From an uncultured bacterium (GTDB taxonomy: Bacteria > Patescibacteriota > Kazan-3B-28): a DNA stretch of 64,000 bases. Shown one piece after another: positions 4,773 to 63,910 of this stretch. The translations under genes were made by a program, and so were the position numbers. Under the pieces are notes generated by a model that worked only from the letters and a program-made list of their open reading frames with translations, did not search any database and was not told where the DNA came from. Positions within the stretch are counted from its first letter, which is position 1. Every line of letters starts with the position of its first letter. Where the stretch lies: the NCBI GenBank assembly GCA_963695435.1, contig OY968788.1:54781-118780 (forward strand). The letters run 5' to 3'.

Positions 4773-4855
4773 ACCTATACCAGTATCGGATATCAGAGTG
4801 AGCCCAGCAAGGGGAGAGGGAATAAGAGATGGGGTATAATAAGGAGCGTCGGCTT

Positions 4856-7168
4856 ATGAAAAAACTGATAATCACTAGTCTGGGGGTGTTTGTTGTAATG
4901 GCGGGTTCACTTATGACCTCGCCTAGTTTAGCAGTCGCGCAAGCGGCTGGGCTAAAAGCCGAGCTAGTTTCGGCCAACTCACCGATTACCGCTAAGGCGG
5001 GTACAGCTGTCGAATTTACGGTAGCAATCAAAAACATTGGCAGCACCACATGGACCAATAGTGGCAGTAACGCGGTGAATCTTGGGACTGTAAAACCGAT
5101 GGATCACAAAAGTCGGTTCGCAACTTCCGGCTGGATCGGAAACAACCGACCGGCAACAATGCAAGAAACAACAGTGGCGGCTGGAGAGACGGCGCATTTT
5201 AGATTTTTGGCAGCAGCAACTGGCAGTGGCAAGGTGACTGATTATTTTGGGTTGGTGATGGAGCGAGTGAGCTGGTTTAGTTTATCGATTCCCTTAACCA
5301 TCAATGTCCAGCCGGCAATTTTTAAGGGTGAATTGGTGGCTCAATCGGCAGCTAGTTTTGAATTGAAGACACAGGAAACTGTTACCGTTACAGTTCGTGT
5401 AAAAAATACAGGCGATGTGGCGTGGGCAAACAGCGGGGCAGGAGCAGTGAAGGTTGCAACTAGTAGCCCATTTGATAGAGCGAGCAATTTGTATCATTCG
5501 AGTTGGCTTAGCAAAAATCGAGCGGCGATGGCGAGTACGGTAATAGAATCGGGGGATGGGGGCGAGTTTACTTTTACGATTCAGGCTCCTAACAAGACAG
5601 GCATTTTTAAAGAAGAGTTTAGTTTGGTAGCGGAGGGAACGGCGTGGATACCGATAAAATTTTGGCTAACAGTGAAAGTAGTGCCTGCGGTGTGGTCGGC
5701 GGAGTTGGTTAACCAATCAACCAAAGTCGTGTCTTTGCCGCCGGAGGATACTGCTACTTTGTGGGCGGAGTTTAAGAATACTGGCAATACGACTTGGCGA
5801 GGAGATGGAGCCAACGCGGTTAAATTGGGGACAGCGCGTAAGTTAGATAGAGTCAGCGTATTCCAAGACAGTTCGTGGTTGAGCAAAAATCGAGTGAAGG
5901 CAATTAGTCCGGTGGAGATTGCCCCCGGAGAGACTGGGCGGTTTGAGTTTGCGATCAAAGCGCCTAATAATCTGGGGAAATATCAAGAATATTTTCGGCC
6001 AGTAGTCGAGGGGGTCACATGGCTTAATGACAGCGGTTTGACGTGGGAAATTACAGTAGAAGAAGAGCTAACTATTAAGGATCCAATTCGGGTTGGCATT
6101 GCTTCTACGGCTGACACGATTACGGTTCAGGGAAATAGTTTTGTAATTCGGCGGGGCAGCGACAAGGGATTGGTAAAGAAAGTATCGGGGGGCAGTGTGG
6201 TGGTGACGGCGTTCAATGGCGGGTATAGTTTGAATACGGGCGAGTCGGTAAATGATTGGCTAAGATTTATTCCGCTCAACAATGCGTTGCTGTCGGTTCG
6301 CACAAGCGGGATTGGCAGTAGTTACGATACATTCCGTGGGATTATTGATGTTCGGCGATCAAGTATGTCGGGTAATGTTTGGGTGGTGAATGTATTGGAG
6401 TTTGAAGATTATATGAAGGGGATTGCTGAAGTTCCGGAAGGCTGGCCGGCTGAAGCGCAGAAGGCGCAGATGGTGGCAGCGCGTACTTATGCTGTGACGA
6501 AGTTGAAGGCTCCGGTAGCTGACATTTTTGATATTTATGATGATACTCGGGATCAGGTTTATTACGGATACGATTATGAATCCAGCCGACCAGGACTAGT
6601 TGCGGCGGCGGAATCAACAAGAGGAATAATTATCAAATACAACGGTGTGCCAATCTCTGCTTATTATTTCTCGGACAGTGGCGGTTATACCGAAAATGTG
6701 GAAAATGTTTGGACGAAGACTATCCCGTATCTAAGAGCTGTGCCCGATCCGTATGCTAAGCCGATTGAATGGACGGCGACTTTGACCCAAGATTATTTGC
6801 AAGGTCGTTTTGATGAATCGCTGGATGTTGCTCCGGGCGCGGATGTGATTGTGGGCATTGCGGTAACCGAGCGGAATCCATCGGGCAGATTGAAAACGAT
6901 AACATTTACTATGCAAAGCGGTAAAGTTGTACCGATTTCGTCCAAGACATTTGATTATCTGACCAATGGCAATGAAGTTAAAAGCATGAAATTTGATGTT
7001 GTTGCTACTGGGGACCCCGCACGGCCAGACTTTATTTTTACCGGACAAGGTTGGGGTCATGGCGTGGGGATGGCGCAGTGGGGCGCGAAGAATATGGCTT
7101 TGCAGGGTAAAAATTATCAGGAAATTCTGACTTATTATTACACTGGTGTTACCGTCGGCTCTCGATAA
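4856..7168 (+). CDS. Secreted SpoIID/LytB-domain protein. Three N-terminal tandem repeats of about 120 aa with an Ig-like beta-sandwich are followed by a C-terminal SpoIID amidase-enhancer/lytic domain.
   Basis: The start is chosen at MKKLIITSL, with AAGGAG 9 nt upstream; the ORF track starts 9 codons earlier. The repeats read TVKV.NTG...W.NSG...LVAEG.AWI. The C-terminus has the SpoIID-type YYFSDSGGYTENVENVW. Confidence 0.8.
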   Translation: MKKLIITSLGVFVVMAGSLMTSPSLAVAQAAGLKAELVSANSPITAKAGTAVEFTVAIKNIGSTTWTNSGSNAVNLGTVKPMDHKSRFATSGWIGNNRPATMQETTVAAGETAHFRFLAAATGSGKVTDYFGLVMERVSWFSLSIPLTINVQPAIFKGELVAQSAASFELKTQETVTVTVRVKNTGDVAWANSGAGAVKVATSSPFDRASNLYHSSWLSKNRAAMASTVIESGDGGEFTFTIQAPNKTGIFKEEFSLVAEGTAWIPIKFWLTVKVVPAVWSAELVNQSTKVVSLPPEDTATLWAEFKNTGNTTWRGDGANAVKLGTARKLDRVSVFQDSSWLSKNRVKAISPVEIAPGETGRFEFAIKAPNNLGKYQEYFRPVVEGVTWLNDSGLTWEITVEEELTIKDPIRVGIASTADTITVQGNSFVIRRGSDKGLVKKVSGGSVVVTAFNGGYSLNTGESVNDWLRFIPLNNALLSVRTSGIGSSYDTFRGIIDVRRSSMSGNVWVVNVLEFEDYMKGIAEVPEGWPAEAQKAQMVAARTYAVTKLKAPVADIFDIYDDTRDQVYYGYDYESSRPGLVAAAESTRGIIIKYNGVPISAYYFSDSGGYTENVENVWTKTIPYLRAVPDPYAKPIEWTATLTQDYLQGRFDESLDVAPGADVIVGIAVTERNPSGRLKTITFTMQSGKVVPISSKTFDYLTNGNEVKSMKFDVVATGDPARPDFIFTGQGWGHGVGMAQWGAKNMALQGKNYQEILTYYYTGVTVGSR

Positions 7169-20420: not shown

Positions 20421-22394
20421 ATGTTGGCCAAGCTATTGTCGTGGAAGATTGGTGGCTTGGCTGTTTTGGCTGCCACCGCTGTTTGGGCATCAGTTGGTCC
20501 AGACAGTATTATTCAGAATAATGTTGTGGATAAGGTACGGGCGACGCAGGCTCTTGGTCGGTTGATGGAGGTAAGCGATTCTGATCCATTAGGCATCCGT
20601 TATCCGATTGTTATTATCCCTGGAAAGAACTCTTCTAAAGATCCTAATGGTCCGTCAGAAAGTGAGATTCTCGAAATGGTCAGAGCGGTTTTGGGTGGCG
20701 ACTGGCAGAGTTCGTATCAAAACTGGACTGGTTACATTTTCGCTGAAGATGTGAAGGTTTACGTTTTTTGGTACAACTCTGATTCGGCTGACCCTGACAT
20801 TGCTCAATCGATGAATGCACTTGTTGAAGGTAGTCCAGATTTGACTAAAGCTGGGATACGGTTTTCAAGTGTGACTCACAGCAAAGGCGGTAATATTCTC
20901 TTTTGCTATTCGGTCCAAACTGATAACCGCAAATTAGATGCCAAAGTATCTTCTGCTGCACCGACCATTGGTACTGGGATGGCTGACCGCAACAAGGTTG
21001 CGCAGGGAATTAGGAGAGCATTCCCCTTGTTGGGGAAATTGCTGAATAAACTACTGGGCAATCGGGGGATGGATTTAGATTCGCCCGGAGTTCAGTGGCT
21101 TCTCCCAAACTATCCTCCAATGATAGAGTTGCGCAAAAAGCACCCATTAGATTCGAGTTGGACGCTTATTGGTGGGAAAGTAAAACCAACCGGGAAAAGC
21201 GTAATCGCTCGAAACCTAGATTTGGGATTTTTGCTCGACCGAACTCTGCTTGAGGGAGGAAATGATCAGGACACCAAGGCTTATCAAGTTGGTGCTCTGA
21301 TTATGAAAGAGATGGGAGTTACTTGTGGCAGTGACGGGGTGGTTCCTTTAGACTCCGCGCTTTGCAGGGGTTATGCCGGTGGGGCAAATACGATAGTCTT
21401 GCCCTCTGACCACAACCACAGTCAAATGTGGTGGGGTAACTCTAGTATGGAAGCTCATGATGCCATGCTGAAGCCGATTATCCCGTACATTTTGGCTAAC
21501 AAAGAAGCCAACAAGAAACTTCATCTGACAATGTGGCTGCCGGAAATGCCAGTAATTAAAATTCCTGAAACTCAAACAGATGGGCTGGAGCAGGCTCGGC
21601 TGGTTTGGGGTAATGAGGAAGGTGGTATTTCGGTGGCGGATAGTCAATTCGCGAACCCGCGCAAACTGTATTTGCCGGAAGGCAGATATTTTTGGCCGCA
21701 GTGGTTTGGAGATGGTTTCGTCGCAACTTGGTCGCACCAAGGAGGCAACGACATAGTTTCTGTTTTTGACGGACAAGTGGTTCAGCTGACTACTGACGGT
21801 CAAAGCTCGCTGGCGACAGCGGGGGACGGGAAGATAGTTTTTCTTGGCAACGGCAACTTGGTTCTGCGGACTGCCGGCGGCTTAGCGAAAGTGTTGGTAA
21901 GGGGCCCGCTGCTTATGGAATATCCACCAGTAATAATGGGCGACAAGGTGTACTTTACTGTTTCCAACTCGCTGGGTGGGGCTGACCTGCGATGGGTCAG
22001 TACGGAAGTCAGCGATTACCCGCTTGCCAAAACGAGATTGGTCGAAAGCCAAGTGACCCATCCGATGAAAATCGGTGATGTGCTCCTCGCGGTCAAGGTC
22101 GGGGCTGACAGCTCTTCCCTCACAGTAGTGACTGGTAAATGGGGGACTTTGAGAGCGACTCTTGCTACTGGGATGAAAACGCTGAACGAAAGTTTTGCAG
22201 GTGGCAGTGTCCCGTTGCCCACGCTCCTGGACATGGACAGCCAAGAGAACTGGCTGTATCTGGTGATAGGTAACGATATCCGTCAGCTAGATGTTGGGGC
22301 TATCGCTCAAACTATCGCTAGCGGCGGCGGTTCGATTACTCTAGACCAGGCTGCAATTCGGCGTGTAACCGGAACGCAGTTTGACGCGAAATGA
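20421..22394 (+). CDS. Secreted alpha/beta-hydrolase-fold protein (lipase/esterase-like) with a C-terminal beta-propeller-like region
   Basis: A signal peptide is present. PIVIIPG and THSKGG form a GxSxG-like nucleophile elbow. Downstream SDGVVPLDSA and SDHNHS motifs are present. AAGGAGGTG precedes the ATG. Confidence 0.45.
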   Translation: MLAKLLSWKIGGLAVLAATAVWASVGPDSIIQNNVVDKVRATQALGRLMEVSDSDPLGIRYPIVIIPGKNSSKDPNGPSESEILEMVRAVLGGDWQSSYQNWTGYIFAEDVKVYVFWYNSDSADPDIAQSMNALVEGSPDLTKAGIRFSSVTHSKGGNILFCYSVQTDNRKLDAKVSSAAPTIGTGMADRNKVAQGIRRAFPLLGKLLNKLLGNRGMDLDSPGVQWLLPNYPPMIELRKKHPLDSSWTLIGGKVKPTGKSVIARNLDLGFLLDRTLLEGGNDQDTKAYQVGALIMKEMGVTCGSDGVVPLDSALCRGYAGGANTIVLPSDHNHSQMWWGNSSMEAHDAMLKPIIPYILANKEANKKLHLTMWLPEMPVIKIPETQTDGLEQARLVWGNEEGGISVADSQFANPRKLYLPEGRYFWPQWFGDGFVATWSHQGGNDIVSVFDGQVVQLTTDGQSSLATAGDGKIVFLGNGNLVLRTAGGLAKVLVRGPLLMEYPPVIMGDKVYFTVSNSLGGADLRWVSTEVSDYPLAKTRLVESQVTHPMKIGDVLLAVKVGADSSSLTVVTGKWGTLRATLATGMKTLNESFAGGSVPLPTLLDMDSQENWLYLVIGNDIRQLDVGAIAQTIASGGGSITLDQAAIRRVTGTQFDAK

Positions 22395-28838: not shown

Positions 28839-28902
28839 GTTTTTCTTTTTCTGTCATGCTTGAGCGAAGCGAAGCATCTATAATGATGTTTCTTTTTGTT
28901 TT

Positions 28903-29105
28903 CAAGGGTCTCCGCGACCCTTGTATCGCGGTTACTTTGTCTTGTCAAAGTAACCAAACCGTCCCGCCAGTCGCTTTCGCTATTCATCTAATAAAATTAG
29001 CTTTCTGACTTACGGCGAACTCCTCCTTGTCAGTCGTCAAACAGCGCCTTCGTCAGCGCTAATTTTATTGATTCATTACACTCAAGCTCCAATGGCGGAT
29101 GGGAG
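28903..29105 (+). repeat. Intergenic structured repeat element, copy 1 of 3. Two leader hairpins are followed by a core of about 140 nt closed by long-range pairing, ending ctcaagctccaatggcgg.
   Basis: The core 28963-29105 is about 92% identical to 60727-60860. The hairpins 28903-28960 match 34963-35020. Confidence 0.7.
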
Positions 29106-29282: not shown

Positions 29283-29311
29283 TTGACGAGAGGTAGTTTT
29301 TGTGGTATAAT
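29283..29311 (+). promoter_or_regulatory. Strong sigma70-type promoter: TTGACG, 17 nt spacer, extended -10 TGGTATAAT
   Basis: The sequence cttgacgagaggtagtttttgtggtataatga lies about 28 nt upstream of the TTG start of the surface-protein gene. Confidence 0.6.
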
Positions 29312-29338
29312 GAGCAATAAAACTAAAATAAAAACGGC

Positions 29339-30679
29339 TTGAATAAAATCAGCTTCAATAAGCATAAATTGTTTCAATGGCTGGAGCGAGAGCTGTGTGC
29401 CGTTTTAGCAATACTAATAGTAGGGGCGGGTGTCGTATTGACGCGAGCAGGGACTACTAGTGAAGTGTTAACGACGCTAAGTGTCTTGCCGGCTGCAGGG
29501 ACAATCCAGGTGGATGTTCCTAATGGCGGAGAGAGTTGGCAGATTGGGACTAGCCAGACAATTGAGTGGATGGCAGGGGCTGGTATAGCTGATGTGAAGA
29601 TAGAGCTACAGCGGACTACAGGTGGGACTTGGGAAACGATTGTCGCAACGGTGGCAGCGAGTGACGGGAGTTATCCATGGACCGTAACTGGTTCGGCAAC
29701 CACTACAGCAATTGTTAAAATTAGCGATACAACCGATCCATTGATTACGGATGTAAGTAATGGGGTGTTTGCAATTACGGCGGCAGTTGTTCCCCCAGTG
29801 ACTCCTCCAACTTCTGGTGGGGGTGGTGGGCCGACTTTACATCCGCCTTTTATTAGCAATGTACAGCCGAGTTCCTTTACAAATACAACTGATGTAATTT
29901 TGGATGTGACGGGATTAAATTTTGAGTACAACACGATTTTCAAATTAGGTACTTCAGATATACGGATGTTGTGGAGCGGCAATACTTCTCATGTTCGGTT
30001 AAAAGTGCCGAGAGGTTTCAAACCTGGCAAGTATGTTTTGGCTGTGTATAACAGCGATGGTACGTTGGCGACTTGGGACAAACAAATTGAGGTTAAGGGA
30101 ATGTATTATGAAGCCGCTTTATTGAACCAGTCGAGTCGACAAATTAAATTGACTGTCGGTCAAACTGCGGAGGTTTGGGCGGATTTTGTAAATACAGGAA
30201 CTGAATCGTGGCTAACCTATACTCGTAACACTACTCGCTTGGGTACTTCTCAAAAACGCGACAGACGAAGTGTGTTTTGGCGAAGTAGCTGGGTGTTGCT
30301 CAACCGACCGGCTAATGTCCAGAAAGCAGGTCTAAGAGGCAGACAAGAGATTAGGCCGGGAGAGACTGGTAGGTTTATTTTTAAGGTGAAAGCTCCGAGC
30401 AAGTCGGGAAATTATGTGGAGTATTTTTCACCAGTAGCAGAATATCTCCAATGGATGGATGCGACAGTATCTTGGGAAATTGTTGTTACAGCTAAGCCAA
30501 CGACTAAGGTTCCAACCACAAGTCAATCTACGATTGGTAGTAAAAGTGTTAGTTGGCCGACATTTGGTCTTCCCGAAGGACCATTAGATTTTTACGACAG
30601 AACCGAGGGATTCTTGTGTGATTTAGGTGGATTATTTAATCGGCTTCTAGGCGGATTTAAAAGTTTGTGGGGTAACTAA
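29339..30679 (+). CDS. Surface protein with an N-terminal transmembrane anchor, a Kre9/KNH-like Ig-fold domain (G.SW..G....I.W), Gly/Pro linkers and a C-terminal Ig-like repeat shared with the SpoIID protein
   Basis: It has a TTG start. PNGGESWQIGTSQTIEW...YPWTV is present, as are the PPVTPPTSGGGGGP linker and a NTG..W...F.VKAPSKSGNYVEYF module. Confidence 0.55.
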   Translation: MNKISFNKHKLFQWLERELCAVLAILIVGAGVVLTRAGTTSEVLTTLSVLPAAGTIQVDVPNGGESWQIGTSQTIEWMAGAGIADVKIELQRTTGGTWETIVATVAASDGSYPWTVTGSATTTAIVKISDTTDPLITDVSNGVFAITAAVVPPVTPPTSGGGGGPTLHPPFISNVQPSSFTNTTDVILDVTGLNFEYNTIFKLGTSDIRMLWSGNTSHVRLKVPRGFKPGKYVLAVYNSDGTLATWDKQIEVKGMYYEAALLNQSSRQIKLTVGQTAEVWADFVNTGTESWLTYTRNTTRLGTSQKRDRRSVFWRSSWVLLNRPANVQKAGLRGRQEIRPGETGRFIFKVKAPSKSGNYVEYFSPVAEYLQWMDATVSWEIVVTAKPTTKVPTTSQSTIGSKSVSWPTFGLPEGPLDFYDRTEGFLCDLGGLFNRLLGGFKSLWGN

Positions 30680-31749
30680 TGAAAAACTTTCGACTTCACC
30701 GATTTTTGCAGTGGGTGGAGCGCGAACTATGTGCGGTATTAGCAGTAGGGATAGTTGGGCTGGGGAGTATATGGGCGATGGCCGGCACTAGTGGTACGGC
30801 AACTTTGTCAGTAACAATCTTGCCTCCGGGAGGAGAAGTTATTTCGGTGACAACGCCTAACGGCGGAGAGAGTTGGACAGTGGGTACTAGTCAAAGTATC
30901 ACTTGGACTGCTACGGTGACAATTACGGATGTCAAAATTGAATTACAGCGTTCGGTTGGAGGAGCTTGGGAAACAATAGTTGCATCAACTACTAATGATG
31001 GAACTTATTCATGGACAGTTGCAGGGTCTGCTACAACAGCAGCAAATATACGAATTAGCAAAGTCGGAGATGCTTCGGTTAATGATGTAAGTAATGCGAT
31101 ATTTAGTATAGTTGCGGCAGGCGGCGGTGGTGGAGGAGGGATTACTCAACCAGTTCCTCAACCCGTAGCGCCTCCAGTCGTAGAGGTGTGGCAAGCGTCT
31201 GATTATCGGGCACGGGTGATTCAACAAACCTATGCTCTTGTCTTATTGCCAGAAGAGGAAGCGACGATAACAATAAGACTTTTGAATACAGGTCGGGCGA
31301 CTTGGTATGGTAATGGCGTTTCCAACCCGATTCGATTGGGAGTTGTGGGTGACGACCCCAGTACGCTATCGGCTGACGCTTGGATAAAATTTAATCGTGC
31401 GGCAGCAATAGAGTCGAATGATGTTCTTGGAGCGGTTCAGCCGAAAGAAGAGGGGTGGTTCACTTTGAAAATACAGGCTCCATTAAAGCCGGGTGTTTAT
31501 CGTGAACAGTTTGCGGTAGTCGCAGAGTATCTTACTTGGCTATCTAATACAAAAGTTAATGTAAAAGTGACGGTGCCAGCCCCTAAGGTAATCGCAAAGA
31601 AGACTTCGTCTAAAGTTACTCCAACAACCCCGACTACTCCAAAGACTATAAAAGGAACCGTCCCGCAAAAGGAAGGTTGGTTGGCCACGGTATGGCATTG
31701 GATATTAAATAAAGCGGTAGCTGCGGTGAAAGCTGCGACTACACATTAA
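30679..31749 (+). CDS. Paralogous surface protein (same transmembrane anchor + Kre9/KNH-like domain + GGGGGGGG linker + Ig-like repeat)
   Basis: MKNFRLHRFLQWVERELCAVLAV aligns with the upstream paralog. PNGGESWTVGTSQSITW is shared. The start overlaps the stop of the previous gene. Confidence 0.55.
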   Translation: MKNFRLHRFLQWVERELCAVLAVGIVGLGSIWAMAGTSGTATLSVTILPPGGEVISVTTPNGGESWTVGTSQSITWTATVTITDVKIELQRSVGGAWETIVASTTNDGTYSWTVAGSATTAANIRISKVGDASVNDVSNAIFSIVAAGGGGGGGITQPVPQPVAPPVVEVWQASDYRARVIQQTYALVLLPEEEATITIRLLNTGRATWYGNGVSNPIRLGVVGDDPSTLSADAWIKFNRAAAIESNDVLGAVQPKEEGWFTLKIQAPLKPGVYREQFAVVAEYLTWLSNTKVNVKVTVPAPKVIAKKTSSKVTPTTPTTPKTIKGTVPQKEGWLATVWHWILNKAVAAVKAATTH

Positions 31750-34838: not shown

Positions 34839-34962
34839 GGTTAAGAATCCTTATCTATGGTTGAGCCCTGTGGGCTTCACCCCGAGATGCTCGGGGAGTA
34901 GAAGGTTAGAGTTATATGAGAGGAGTATAAGGGATTGACCTGAACAGGTCAAGGGAGGGGTG

Positions 34963-35190
34963 CAAGGGTCTGCGCGACCCTTGTACCGCGGTTACTTTGT
35001 CTTGTCAAAGCGACGGAAACCGCTTGCCCACGTCGTCGGGCTTATTCATTGGATAAATTACCTTACCGCTTAAAGGGCAAACTCACCCGATAGCCATCGG
35101 GTTCAAACATGCCCCCGCGACGGCAATTTATCTCAATTCAGGACAGCCCTCCTCCTATGGCATGAAGACAAAAGCTCCAATGGTGGGGAG
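34963..35190 (+). repeat. Intergenic structured repeat element, copy 2 of 3 (divergent copy)
   Basis: The leader hairpins ggtctgcgcgaccc and ggttactttgtcttgtcaaag match copy 1. In the core, the closing stem arms are replaced by different but still complementary sequences (ggataaattacc / ggcaatttatct). The 3' end is aagctccaatggtgggg. Confidence 0.55.
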
Positions 35191-46347: not shown

Positions 46348-46423
46348 GGGCCCGTAACTCAGTGGTTAGAGTAGTCCCCTCATAAGGGATTAGTCCTTGG
46401 TTCGAATCCAAGCGGGCCCACCA
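46348..46423 (+). tRNA. tRNA with CAT anticodon, probably tRNA-Ile2 (lysidine tRNA) or an elongator Met
   Basis: The acceptor stem gggcccg/cgggccc is fully paired. The anticodon loop is cuCAUaa. The D-arm resembles E. coli tRNA-Ile2. CCA is encoded. Confidence 0.75.
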
Positions 46424-46556
46424 CGGCGTCGAAATGGCTTCGCTCGACGCGCGAGCAAAACAGGTTTGCTCGGCTAATGAAGCTCAGCATTTCTCCTTTC
46501 AAAATTACAAACACTTCGTTGGTTTACAATTTTGGTTAGAGACAAAGACTTAGTAT
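46424..46556 (+). repeat. tRNA-trailer repeat element
   Basis: It begins cgtcgaaatggcttc as at 1284. It shares gctcggctaAtg and cagcatttctcctttc with that copy and carries the variant motif ttggtttacaattttggttag. Confidence 0.65.
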
Positions 46557-46565
46557 GTTTTCAAG

Positions 46566-46907
46566 ATGAAGAAGGCGATATCATATCTTTTTTATTTCAA
46601 AGCGCTGGTTTGGATAACTCTAGCGTTCTTTTATTTGAGTCGCCATCTTAGTCCTAATGAAAATGTGGTCTACCAAATTGTTGCTGGTTTACTGTTTGTG
46701 AATGGTTCTGCATACGCAGTTTTGGGATATCTTTTGAGACAAAAAGTTCGGTGGGTATTTTGGCTGTCGCTTGTTTTGGTGGCGGGAAATATTTTGCTGA
46801 CAATTACTGACCAAGTGGGCTGGGTGGATTGGATATCTTTGGCTACTGATTTGGTTCTGGTAGTTTTGTTGCTTTGGTACAGAAAGGAATGGATTCCATC
46901 AAAATAG
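46566..46907 (+). CDS. Hypothetical 113-aa membrane protein (3-4 transmembrane helices)
   Basis: It is an ORF with hydrophobic segments and lies between two convergent tRNA genes and their trailer repeats. Confidence 0.4.
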   Translation: MKKAISYLFYFKALVWITLAFFYLSRHLSPNENVVYQIVAGLLFVNGSAYAVLGYLLRQKVRWVFWLSLVLVAGNILLTITDQVGWVDWISLATDLVLVVLLLWYRKEWIPSK

Positions 46908-46914
46908 TGGCATC

Positions 46915-47042
46915 GTGCGCGGACTCAAACCAAAATCACAAACTAACGAAGTGTTTGTGATTTTGAAAGGAGAAATAACGAGACCCAAAAGCAACCCCGA
47001 GCCTGTCGAGGGCGTTAGCGTAAAGTCGAGTTTATTTCGACG
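46915..47042 (-). repeat. tRNA-trailer repeat element (minus strand, behind the initiator tRNA)
   Basis: The reverse complement reads atttctcctttcaaaatcacaaacacttcgttagtttgtgattttggtttgagtccgcgcacgatgccac. It forms an inverted repeat with 46480-46556. Confidence 0.65.
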
Positions 47043-47118
47043 TGGTTGCGGGGGTGAGATTCGAACTCACGACCTTCAGGTTATGAGCCTGACGAGCTAG
47101 CCACTGCTCTACCCCGCG
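47043..47118 (-). tRNA. Initiator tRNA-fMet (anticodon CAT)
   Basis: A C1xA72 mismatch is present (5' cgcgggg, 3' ccccgca + a + cca). The anticodon arm ucaggcuCAUaaccuga is E. coli tRNAfMet-like. Confidence 0.8.
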
Positions 47119-47152
47119 AGCCAATGTTAGCAATTCAGCTCATATCTGTCCA

Positions 47153-47217
47153 CCCCGTAGAAGAAATTTAATCGCGCTTTGCGCACCAGTCGAAGACATT
47201 AAATTTTCTCTACGGGG
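47153..47217. repeat. Conserved long palindromic hairpin (20-bp arms ccccgtagaagaaatttaat / attaaattttctctacgggg), copy 1
   Basis: The same arms, with a different loop, occur at 63603-63679. On the minus strand it immediately precedes a candidate promoter for the initiator tRNA (TGGACA, 17 nt, TAACAT). Confidence 0.6.
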
Positions 47218-47227
47218 TCCACCCCTA

Positions 47228-47653
47228 TCAAGCGACTTCGTGCAAACCGAGTATCAATCTCCACCATTTTTCGGGGTTGGTTGGTTCCTTTGGAACGGTT
47301 TTTGTTTGGTCTTGGATGTTACCTTCTGTAAATCTTTCAATGTCTTCGTTGGGAATTATCAGCACAGTTTCTCCAACTTTCTGGTAGTTCAGTTTTTCCC
47401 TTGCTTCCTTATCTTTGAAAGCATCTGTTTGGCGGTAGGCGATTAGATTTTGCAGATATTTGTTGTGTAATTTGAGGTCAGCGTTTTCCTGTCTTAGTTG
47501 AGTCAGCTCTTTATCTATTTGATAATTTTGCCAAATTGCTTGAATGGTTGAAACTACCATATATACCAAAAGGATTGCCCCCATGGTCATCAATAGTCTC
47601 GCACGCAATTCCTTGCCCTGCGGTAACTTAATTTTTCCTGATAGCTTGTTCAT
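47228..47653 (-). CDS. ftsB: FtsB/DivIC-like septum formation initiator (short N-terminus, one transmembrane segment, coiled coil)
   Basis: LRARLLMTMGAILLVYMVV is the transmembrane segment. A Q/L-rich coiled coil follows (LTQLRQENADLKL). The start is placed at MNKLSGK; the ORF track's TTG start would overlap the upstream tRNA. Confidence 0.6.
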   Translation of the reverse strand: MNKLSGKIKLPQGKELRARLLMTMGAILLVYMVVSTIQAIWQNYQIDKELTQLRQENADLKLHNKYLQNLIAYRQTDAFKDKEAREKLNYQKVGETVLIIPNEDIERFTEGNIQDQTKTVPKEPTNPEKWWRLILGLHEVA

Positions 47654-47658
47654 AGTTT

Positions 47659-47733
47659 TGGTGCCAGCGACAGGATTCGCACCTGTGACCAATGGCTTAT
47701 GAGTCCACTGCTCTACTGCTGAGCTACGCTGGC
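47659..47733 (-). tRNA. Elongator tRNA-Met (anticodon CAT)
   Basis: The acceptor stem is gccagcg/cgctggc. The anticodon loop is cuCAUaa. The variable loop and T-arm ggtcacaggtgcgaatcc are near-identical to E. coli elongator tRNA-Met. CCA is encoded. Confidence 0.8.
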
Positions 47734-52396: not shown

Positions 52397-52594
52397 AGCA
52401 ATGGAAGAAGAAGAGTGAGGAATTTTTGGACAAACGAAAAGGGCTACCGAGTGGTAGCCCTGCGGAATTTAACCGCTACTATCCAGTAAGGAAGGGGGTC
52501 CTTACAAGAAGCAAAGGTTCAGAACTGACCATAGGGTCAGAGTTTCGCCAAACTTTGAAGTCTGGCTGAATAATAGAAAAGAAAAAAGGACAAA

Positions 52595-52683
52595 GTACCC
52601 GGCGAGACTCGAACCCGCTTCCTTCTGGATCCCTAAGTATCTGGGTGTAGCCAGACGCTCTAGCCCAATTGAGCTACGGGTAC
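52595..52683 (-). tRNA. Atypical tRNA-like gene with unresolved isotype. The acceptor, D and T arms are canonical, the anticodon-loop candidate is CUACACC and there is a 21-nt extra region. No CCA is encoded.
   Basis: The reverse complement is gtacccg-ta-gctc-aattgggcta-gagc-g-tctgg-ctacacc-ccaga-tacttagggatccagaaggaa-gcggg-ttcgagt-ctcgc-cgggtac. Confidence 0.45.
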
Positions 52684-55182: not shown

Positions 55183-55222
55183 TTAGCACTGTATTGACAG
55201 GAGTGCTAATGGGGCATAGAAT
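55183..55222 (+). promoter_or_regulatory. CIRCE operator (TTAGCACTG-N9-GAGTGCTAA) overlapping a sigma70 promoter (TTGACA, 17 nt, TAGAAT)
   Basis: The CIRCE inverted repeat is at 55183-55209. The -35 box TTGACA lies inside the CIRCE spacer. The -10 box TAGAAT is at 55217-55222. The element sits immediately upstream of hrcA. Confidence 0.75.
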
Positions 55223-60666: not shown

Positions 60667-60860
60667 TAAGCGCTCGCGCCGCGCTTAGACTGGCGGTGTC
60701 TTTTCTAGAAAAGACACCCAAAAGTCCCCGCCAGTCGCTTTCGCTATTCATCTAATAAAATTAACTTTCTGACTTACAGCGAACTCGCTACGCTCAAACA
60801 GCGCCTTCGTCAGCGCTAATTTTATTGATTCAGTACACTCAAGCTCCAATGGCGGATAGA
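60667..60860 (+). repeat. Intergenic structured repeat element, copy 3 of 3
   Basis: The core 60727-60860 is about 92% identical to 28963-29105. It is preceded by two different hairpins (aagcgctcgcgccgcgctt; ggtgtcttttctagaaaagacacc). Confidence 0.7.
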
Positions 60861-63679: not shown

Positions 63680-63708
63680 TTGACAGGGGGCAGGGTGGGG
63701 CTTAGAAT
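63680..63708 (+). promoter_or_regulatory. rRNA operon promoter: TTGACA, 17 nt, TAGAAT
   Basis: The sequence ttgacagggggcagggtggggcttagaat lies about 200 nt upstream of the 16S 5' end. Confidence 0.6.
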
Positions 63709-63910
63709 ACTCACTAGAGTTGCATTAATTTTAAAGCTAGGTCGAGGCTATAAAAGCTAAAGGGATTCCGGTTGCCGGAGTCTATCTTTTATTTACCCCT
63801 CCTAGGGCTTTGAGGCAGCTCCTAATCAGTACTTTTACAACCAGAGAGTACTTAGAGAGCAAATAGTGAATTCAAGAATAAAATTCCAGAAGTGGAATAA
63901 AAATATACTT

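Follow-up and report, generated by a model that had tools for sequence, protein, structure and literature searches.

We analyzed a 64,000-nucleotide stretch of DNA (the window) from an uncultured bacterium of the Kazan-3B-28 lineage of Patescibacteriota (contig OY968788.1), in which two adjacent open reading frames (ORFs) on the + strand encode predicted envelope proteins. ORF-A (29339-30679, 446 aa) starts with TTG and ORF-B (30679-31749, 356 aa; exact protein on record P0001) with ATG, the stop of the first overlapping the start of the second by 1 nt (TAATG). From its N-terminus, ORF-A consists of a leader, a Kre9/KNH-like Ig/Fn3 domain, a Gly/Pro hinge, an IPT/TIG domain, an FW (four-tryptophan, NBR1-like) domain, a Pro/Thr linker and an amphipathic helix. 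ORF-B is made up of a leader, an Ig/Fn3 domain, a Gly7/Pro hinge, an FW domain, a Pro/Thr/Lys linker and an amphipathic helix. Pfam and NCBIfam searches found no catalytic domain in either protein, the SpoIID/LytB domain included.

BLASTP aligned the leader and first domain of the two proteins with 79 of 146 residues identical (54%, E 7e-47) and the C-terminal module with 39 of 121 identical (32%, E 4e-13), bearing out the first-pass annotation of this DNA, which had described a paralogous pair with a common C-terminal module. Divergence is faster in the FW module and tail than in the N-terminal domain, and, judged by sequence, ORF-A and ORF-B are old paralogs. Recent gene conversion between them was ruled out, the two genes sharing no long identical DNA tracts. 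The first-pass annotation had also given both proteins the same architecture, which is correct for the shared domains and incorrect for the layout, since ORF-A carries an additional IPT/TIG domain (aa ~170-253). Besides this TIG domain, it had overlooked that both proteins end in conserved amphipathic helices and that the module is an FW/NBR1 domain.

Domain assignments and predicted structures

AlphaFold2 models built from 29-sequence alignments averaged a pLDDT of 79.5 (ORF-A) and 74.8 (ORF-B), with values of about 90 in the domains and below 50 in the linkers, which are predicted to be disordered. The ORF-A model contains a helix (residues 6-36), three beta domains (56-147, 171-253 and 259-384) and a second helix (421-444), and the ORF-B model a helix (4-35), two beta domains (55-145 and 178-299) and a second helix (332-355); in both, a disordered linker separates the leader helix from the first domain. 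The beta-domain boundaries, which the earlier annotation had left to structure prediction, are thereby mapped in both proteins.

As individual Pfam scores were sub-threshold, we based the domain assignments on homologs and fold comparison. The N-terminal Ig/Fn3-like domain of ORF-A (29504-29779, aa 56-147) scored 21.0 bits against Kre9_KNH (PF10342) and that of ORF-B 22.3 bits, with a cut-off of 24.6; many proteins matching this domain of ORF-A or ORF-B carry precomputed PF10342 matches, and we describe it as Kre9/KNH-like, in line with the original annotation. The second domain of ORF-A (29846-30097, aa 170-253), absent from ORF-B, scored 20.1 bits against TIG (PF01833), marginally under the cut-off of 20.9, which the orthologs P0040, P0041, P0042 and P0045 pass with 24-32 bits. 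Together, these ortholog scores and the predicted IPT fold place ORF-A in the IPT/TIG family.

The third type of domain (ORF-A, 30107-30508, aa 257-390; ORF-B, 31180-31593, aa 168-305) had been described only as an Ig-like module of about 120 aa. We assign it as an FW domain because PF16158 (N_BRCA1_IG) was matched by 21 of 30 family modules and orthologs exceed its cut-off; no other family was matched consistently. The window proteins themselves scored 19.1-22.2 bits (ORF-A) and 20.5 bits (ORF-B) against a gathering cut-off of 28, whereas the family members P0041, P0042, P0012 and L004_2 reached 31-43 bits and the SpoIID repeats discussed below 56.9 bits; membership of ORF-A and ORF-B in PF16158 therefore follows by transitive homology. 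The best sequence-profile match of the 30 modules in the PDB was NBR1 (4ole), but only at E 0.037, and the module is superposable on solved FW domains as an Ig-like beta-sandwich. Three tryptophans are invariant in all 30 modules (W42, W69 and W123 in A-module numbering), while a fourth (W31, in a WV-x-F motif) is common among them and absent from ORF-B.

The FW module in a SpoIID/LytB protein and beyond

The same module recurs three times in a SpoIID/LytB-domain protein of the window (4829-7168, +, 779 aa), as first noted from the sequence alone and now borne out by alignments and a profile hidden Markov model (HMM). The start of this ORF, originally placed at 4856, may lie at 4829, with GGAGAGGG upstream. 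The protein consists of a signal peptide, three FW modules (about 4934-5320, 5300-5692 and 5672-6076, +, by the module HMM) and a catalytic domain (about 6383-7156, +), and it matched Pfam SpoIID at 63.7 bits and N_BRCA1_IG at 56.9 bits, both above their cut-offs, as well as NCBIfam TIGR02669 at 216 bits. The ORF-A module is 42%, 31% and 30% identical to the three repeats (E 2e-29 to 3e-11), the closest being the third repeat with 42%, and the ORF-B module is 35%, 30% and 24% identical to them. When the five-module HMM was run against the six-frame translation of the window, it matched only ORF-A, ORF-B and the SpoIID protein.

A profile of 30 FW modules matched 9,858 representative proteins at E <= 1e-3, of which 1,177 remain at E <= 1e-30, family size being counted as ~10,000 clusters at 50% identity. 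Many of these matches hold 3-14 tandem copies, an N-terminal hydrophobic segment is present in 112 of 147 top representatives, and PF16158 was matched by 65 of 66 sampled top matches, with E values up to 1.2e-29. The partner domains recognised among these 66 include SpoIID (four), CHAP (two), a C39-like peptidase and S8, and further fusions join two FW modules to Amidase_2 (P0070), S8 (P0068) or CAP (P0031).

In proteins outside the window, the FW repeats of the top matches are most often joined to a secreted N-terminal domain of ~250-310 aa, which we call 'LQKE' (P0153, P0166, P0196, P0208 and others). It has the conserved motifs INPxV-L-TLQKE, G-GCPD, LY-YTP and NF-WFG and gave no match in Pfam, the PDB (single sequence or profile), PHROGs or NCBIfam. 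By context, the 'LQKE' domain may be an undescribed family of wall-active enzymes.

Leader, C-terminal helix and possible mode of retention

The ORF-A leader (29339-29449, +, aa 1-37) comprises a basic n-region, an LERELxxVLA motif and a hydrophobic stretch, and ends in T-R-A before Gly38. All homologs follow the same pattern of a basic stretch, [LFIV]E-x-EL-xx-[VIL]LA and a hydrophobic core of 17-19 residues (KD19 2.2-2.35; ORF-A 2.35), and the motif was found in 25 retrieved proteins, every one of them belonging to the ORF-A/ORF-B family. The hydrophobic stretch is followed by an invariant Ala at -1 (Ala37 in ORF-A; 29 sequences), with Ala, Thr or Val at -3 in all aligned homologs; the ORF-B leader ends W-A-M-A and the ORF-A leader L-T-R-A, each before G. 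Small residues at -3 and -1 are the signal-peptidase I rule, and the leaders have the sequence features of a Sec signal peptide with a predicted signal peptidase I site. The leader may be cleaved by signal peptidase. The N-terminal 'transmembrane anchor' of the earlier annotation therefore holds as a hydrophobic leader with predicted export to the envelope and not as an established anchor, given that the signal-peptidase motif means possible cleavage.

The public record bears on this leader as well. The NCBI model of ORF-A (P0026, 413 aa) starts at Leu34, which removes the leader (29339-29437), while the N-termini of all homologs and a second gene caller support the 446-aa form.

Whether the leader is removed is a question on which its own features disagree: the invariant Ala speaks for cleavage, whereas an n-region conserved to this unusual degree speaks for retention or for some specialised role in targeting. 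If it were retained as an uncleaved signal-anchor, both products would be type II membrane proteins acting as membrane-wall tethers or spacers, with the FW module or the C-terminal helix at the distal contact. This alternative draws on the strong maintenance of the n-/h-region motif (hh-LE-x-EL-xx-VLA) in all 25 members, unusual for a cleaved signal peptide, on the length and hydrophobicity of the stretch, and on the AlphaFold2 models, which show a continuous leader helix followed by a disordered tether. However, the invariant -1 Ala and the Ala/Thr/Val at -3 stand exactly at the end of the hydrophobic stretch, and conserved motifs occur in cleaved leaders too, for example YSIRK-G/S in Gram-positive surface proteins. 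We consider the signal-anchor a realistic possibility, though a less probable one than an exported protein held at the wall.

Both proteins end in an amphipathic helix. That of ORF-A (30599-30670, +, aa 421-444; muH 0.47, KD19 0.84) follows a conserved LPEGPxxFYDxxE and is not a transmembrane segment, and that of ORF-B (31672-31743, +, aa 332-355) reads GWLATVWHWILNKAVAAVKAATTH and is conserved in P0002, P0003 and P0004. Together the two helices span KD19 0.84-0.97 and muH 0.34-0.47, and such a helix is kept in every family member examined (muH 0.34-0.67, KD19 0.4-1.0).

We also weighed whether the proteins might be substrates of a sortase (LPXTG), an exosortase (PEP-CTERM) or a prepilin peptidase, and so be covalently attached or polymerised. 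What speaks for such processing is an LP[EQ]xP motif before the C-terminal helix and a P-[ST]-T-G-G(-E) motif, sometimes LPSTGG, in the linkers of relatives, where it occurs after FW modules, between modules and before the tail (P0005, P0010, P0011, P0012, P0018, P0041, P0045, P0050, and the Kazan loci L003 and L004). The latter motif is, however, degenerate or absent in ORF-A and ORF-B, which lack PSTGG itself, and in relatives it also occurs mid-protein between two FW modules; LPXTG was found in neither window protein. The C-terminal helix is amphipathic rather than a transmembrane segment with a basic tail. No NCBIfam sorting-signal model matched either leader or tail at E <= 5, the leader has no Gly/Phe prepilin cleavage motif, and no N_methyl match was found in Pfam (E <= 1) or NCBIfam (E <= 5). 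Sortase, PEP-CTERM and pilin sorting were rejected on the amphipathicity of the helix and the missing NCBIfam matches, and we regard this form of attachment as highly improbable.

Glycine-rich hinges

ORF-A carries a Gly5 run (29816-29830, +; GGT GGG GGT GGT GGG) within a disordered Pro/Gly hinge at aa 148-170, and ORF-B a Gly7 run (31120-31140, +, aa 148-154; GGC GGC GGT GGT GGA GGA GGG), both flanked by Pro-rich stretches. The first-pass annotation had proposed that these poly-G-coding runs could expand or contract, and slippage at such contingency loci would vary linker length between cells or strains. Some variation does exist, with run lengths of 4-8 across the whole family and, in a relative 93% identical to ORF-B (P0004), indels in the flanking Pro-rich parts next to an unchanged run of seven. 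However, the runs are short (15-21 nt) and of mixed codons (GGC/GGT/GGA/GGG), Tandem Repeats Finder called neither as an array, and close relatives keep the same or nearly the same length: 5/5/5 for the A-type (ORF-A, P0023, P0040) and 7/7/7/8 for the B-type (ORF-B, P0004, P0002, P0003). On/off switching at these sites is impossible because any change would be in frame. The Gly/Pro linkers thus stand as described, while the comparison across relatives revealed no hypervariability; on this sequence evidence the runs are best described as ordinary indel-tolerant low-complexity hinges, and a contingency function is extremely doubtful. The region just after the poly-Gly hinge also gave weak matches to NCBIfam 'CoaZ_rpt_PGGG' (19.5 bits against a cut-off of 30).

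Promoter, start codon and transcript

A sigma-70-type promoter precedes ORF-A at 29283-29311 (+), with a -35 element TTGACG (29283-29288), a 17-nt spacer and an extended -10 element TGgTATAAT (29303-29311). It agrees with consensus at 11 of 12 positions plus the TG, as the first-pass annotation had recognised, and three further Kazan loci (L001, L003 and L004) have the same motif 20-40 nt ahead of the pair's first gene, making four genomes with the window. Only three 11/12 sites occur in the 64-kb window, the other two being at 55194-55222 (+), ahead of the heat-shock operon hrcA-grpE, and at 63680-63708 (+), 230 nt upstream of the 16S rRNA gene (start at 63909). Given that the ORF-A promoter ranks with the hrcA and rRNA promoters, high expression is a reasonable inference, and the pair is probably highly expressed.

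The TTG start of ORF-A lies at 29339, and no start further upstream is possible due to an in-frame TAA at 29324. In the closest genome (L001) the gene begins TTG ATG AAA ATC, and in the window TTG AAT AAA ATC, indicating that TTG is used here because the ancestral ATG one codon downstream has mutated to AAT. A 15-nt tandem duplication (AATAAAAACGGCTTG / AATAAAATCAGCTTC / AATAA; 29327-29361) spans the start codon. The earlier observation of a TTG start with no Shine-Dalgarno sequence is accurate, but it marks no peculiarity of this gene: a Shine-Dalgarno-like 4-mer precedes only 15 of the 50 crude gene calls in the window, so its absence is the norm in this genome, and the TTG is explained by loss of the ATG.

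At the other end, the 3' ends of ORF-B and the convergent ychF overlap by 11 nt (31739-31749), with overlaps of 4-17 nt in all four genomes, and a strong transcript from the pair may continue into ychF and efp as antisense RNA.

The 500-bp spacer upstream of ORF-A held no Rfam match and no convincing ORF. It is longer than its counterpart in L001 (90 bp) because a structured intergenic repeat sits there, upstream of the promoter (28895-29103), with further copies at 60690-60860 and 34955-35060. Positions 28963-29100 are 90% identical to 60727-60857 over 138 nt, and 28903-28950 are 96% identical to 34963-35010 over 48 nt. All copies are intergenic and in + orientation, and weak matches exist in the Kazan loci L003 (14387-14456), L012 and L004. 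The repeat is predicted to fold into three hairpins (-51.7 kcal/mol, z = -6.0), ending in a terminator-like hairpin and a T-run, and had no match in Rfam; it could be a small RNA or an element resembling a miniature inverted-repeat transposable element (MITE).

Genomic context and lineage distribution

Named relatives of the two proteins come from metagenome-assembled genomes (MAGs) of candidate division Kazan and Patescibacteria. In the window and in L001, L003 and L004, the tandem pair occupies one slot in the order NusA, ClpB, PIN/TRAM, the pair, convergent ychF, efp, S18, SSB and S6. Each gene has its own ortholog in L001, with identities of ~75% in the first domain and 67% in FW for ORF-A and ~77% and 60% for ORF-B, pairwise K-domain identities being deflated by envelope trimming and used only for ortholog assignment. 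The two copies are more alike in other genomes (92% in one contig), and the sequences indicate that the pair has apparently undergone repeated duplication or conversion there. Several related genomes have a single intact gene only. When one genome from each of 185,579 species was scanned, all parts of the architecture were present together in only about nine Kazan-like MAGs, with PIN/TRAM on one side and ychF on the other in every case, while the first domain alone is present in many phyla.

This restriction to one lineage would be expected if ORF-A and ORF-B were adhesins that attach a presumably episymbiotic cell to its host, with the FW and/or Kre9-like domain binding a host-surface ligand; the flexible multi-domain architecture and the faster divergence of FW and tail are also consistent with such a role. 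In contrast, the presence of FW on SpoIID/LytB, a wall enzyme of the same cell, suggests that the ligand belongs to the producer, the gene neighbourhood is stable and housekeeping, and close relatives (82-93% identical, with the same domain order) lack the variation typical of host-interaction proteins. We therefore judge host adhesion unlikely.

A further alternative is that the pair forms two subunits of an S-layer-like coat, with FW in place of SLH-type anchoring and the Ig-like domains forming the lattice. Candidate Phyla Radiation (CPR) cells are reported to carry S-layers. A promoter as near consensus as that of the rRNA gene, secreted strings of beta-sandwich domains with the S-layer protein SbsB as second Foldseek match, and a two-gene arrangement conserved across the clade would all suit such a coat. 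However, the Foldseek matches are generic multi-Ig strings with TM-scores of ~0.2, long disordered Gly/Pro and Pro/Thr linkers are atypical of lattice proteins, the proteins are small (35-45 kDa), and one intact gene is all that several related genomes have. An S-layer-like coat is thus, in our estimate, distinctly unlikely, and slightly more so than adhesion.

Other features of the window

Every 2-kb bin from 1 to 64000 has a strongly positive GC skew (0.12-0.32), and 38 of the 50 crude gene calls lie on the + strand. A 90-nt tRNA-like gene at 52594-52683 (-) matches Rfam tRNA at 51.3 bits; ARAGORN leaves its identity undetermined, giving a 2-base anticodon within a 6-nt loop, and the gene has a long extra arm or insert, the CCAGA half of its anticodon stem occurring twice. 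Three tRNA-Met (CAT) genes, one + and two -, lie within 1.4 kb at 46348-47733. The best Shine-Dalgarno sequence in the window (AAGGAGG) precedes a 657-aa ORF at 20421-22394 (+) that has no Pfam match at E <= 0.001; L001 and L003 encode a similarly sized protein ahead of L19.

Proposed role and relation to known systems

We consider it moderately probable that ORF-A and ORF-B are exported, abundant, non-catalytic, wall-associated envelope proteins that are encoded in an operon and dock through their FW modules. Under this model, the two genes would form an operon transcribed from one strong, conserved sigma-70 promoter, with coupled translation suggested by the overlap of their coding regions. 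Both products would be exported by Sec via the unusually conserved 35-37-aa leader, and the mature proteins, which may act together, would be flexible strings of beta-sandwich domains in which the FW module is the ligand-binding part. A shared envelope ligand appears most likely for the pair because FW occurs three times in the cell's own SpoIID/LytB hydrolase and is fused elsewhere to CHAP, amidase_2, C39-like and S8 domains. The docking target would be peptidoglycan or its stem peptides, or else a polymer or protein associated with the wall, and retention at the surface could come from FW binding together with the amphipathic helix and/or an uncleaved leader. The strength of the promoter suggests abundant structural or adhesive components of the Kazan-lineage envelope.

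Several observations weigh against this model. The view of FW as an envelope-targeting module, and with it the proposed ligand, derives from domain co-occurrence. Characterised FW domains bind proteins, not cell walls. FW is also fused to non-wall enzymes (S8 peptidase, CAP and Cu-oxidase), and most FW-repeat proteins have an N-terminal domain of no recognised function rather than a known wall hydrolase. For ORF-A and ORF-B themselves, the Kre9_KNH, TIG and N_BRCA1_IG scores each fall just under the curated cut-offs. The n- and h-regions of the leader show much stronger conservation than signal peptides destined for removal usually do, and AlphaFold2 draws one continuous helix there (aa 4-36). 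Finally, there is no terminator-like site after ORF-B before about 33507, so the transcript may extend beyond the pair.

In the literature that we searched, bacterial FW domains figure only as a heterogeneous group, cytoplasmic XRE-FW regulators among them, and a fungal FW domain is shown to bind a cargo peptide tail (PMC3357945, PMC9233695, PMC9582228). Eukaryotic FW domains are cytosolic and bind the proteins MAP1B, TAX1BP1 and Ams1 (PMC3357945, PMC9233695), CtNbr1 FW contacting the N-terminal peptide of Ams1 (PMC9233695). The window module has in common with the eukaryotic PF16158 domains (human NBR1 4OLE, ILRUN 6VHI and CtNbr1) the motifs KNTG-x3-W and F-x-AP-x3-G-x-Y, and the SpoIID-protein repeats and many homologs pass the PF16158 cut-off. 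In contrast, modules of the window type are predicted to be extracytoplasmic, are often tandem (up to 14 copies) and are carried on wall-active enzymes, and their identity to NBR1 is 14-19%. Bacterial XRE-FW proteins (Marchbank et al. 2012, PMC3357945) likewise have FW near the C-terminus, but they are cytoplasmic helix-turn-helix regulators with a single FW, whereas ORF-A and ORF-B have a Sec leader and Ig-like domains and no DNA-binding domain. The SpoIID/LytB hydrolase of the window has three copies of the module along with the catalytic domain that ORF-A and ORF-B are missing.

YSIRK-G/S-type surface proteins of Gram-positive bacteria, which use wall-binding modules such as SLH, LysM, SH3b or CWB, offer an analogy: a long motif-bearing leader, Ig-like strings with Pro/Gly/Thr linkers, and a non-catalytic module shared with autolysins. 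ORF-A and ORF-B differ from them in having no LPXTG, SLH, LysM or SH3b, the proposed wall module being FW, which is a candidate only. Their first domain bears the signature PNGGE-W-x-G ... I-x-W ... V-x-IEL of Kre9/KNH-like (PF10342) proteins of bacteria and archaea, and relatives of this domain alone occur in hundreds of genomes across many phyla. Other Kre9/KNH-like proteins are fused to proteases, nucleases or sorting domains of the type IX secretion system (T9SS), many of them being T9SS-sorted, whereas the combination of leader, FW and C-terminal helix is found only in Kazan-like genomes. The pair is a lineage-specific architecture whose domains are all of known types, and it implies no new mechanism.

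A broader synthesis would take extracytoplasmic FW as a widespread envelope-targeting domain that binds peptides or wall, ORF-A and ORF-B as its abundant coat-organising members in Kazan cells (forming an S-layer-like or tethering layer, or competing with or regulating the FW hydrolase), and secreted bacterial FW as the source of the NBR1 domain. All of this holding together is, in our view, improbable.

The narrower model, of FW-docked wall-associated proteins, bears on a group of organisms, the Candidate Phyla Radiation, whose envelope proteins are almost entirely uncharacterised. The public 413-aa annotation of ORF-A drops the predicted export signal. Being clade-specific, syntenically fixed and probably highly expressed, the pair is a candidate marker and antigen for Kazan-group cells. 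With FW common to two non-catalytic proteins and one peptidoglycan hydrolase in one small genome, the locus also offers a handle on the role of FW domains in bacteria.

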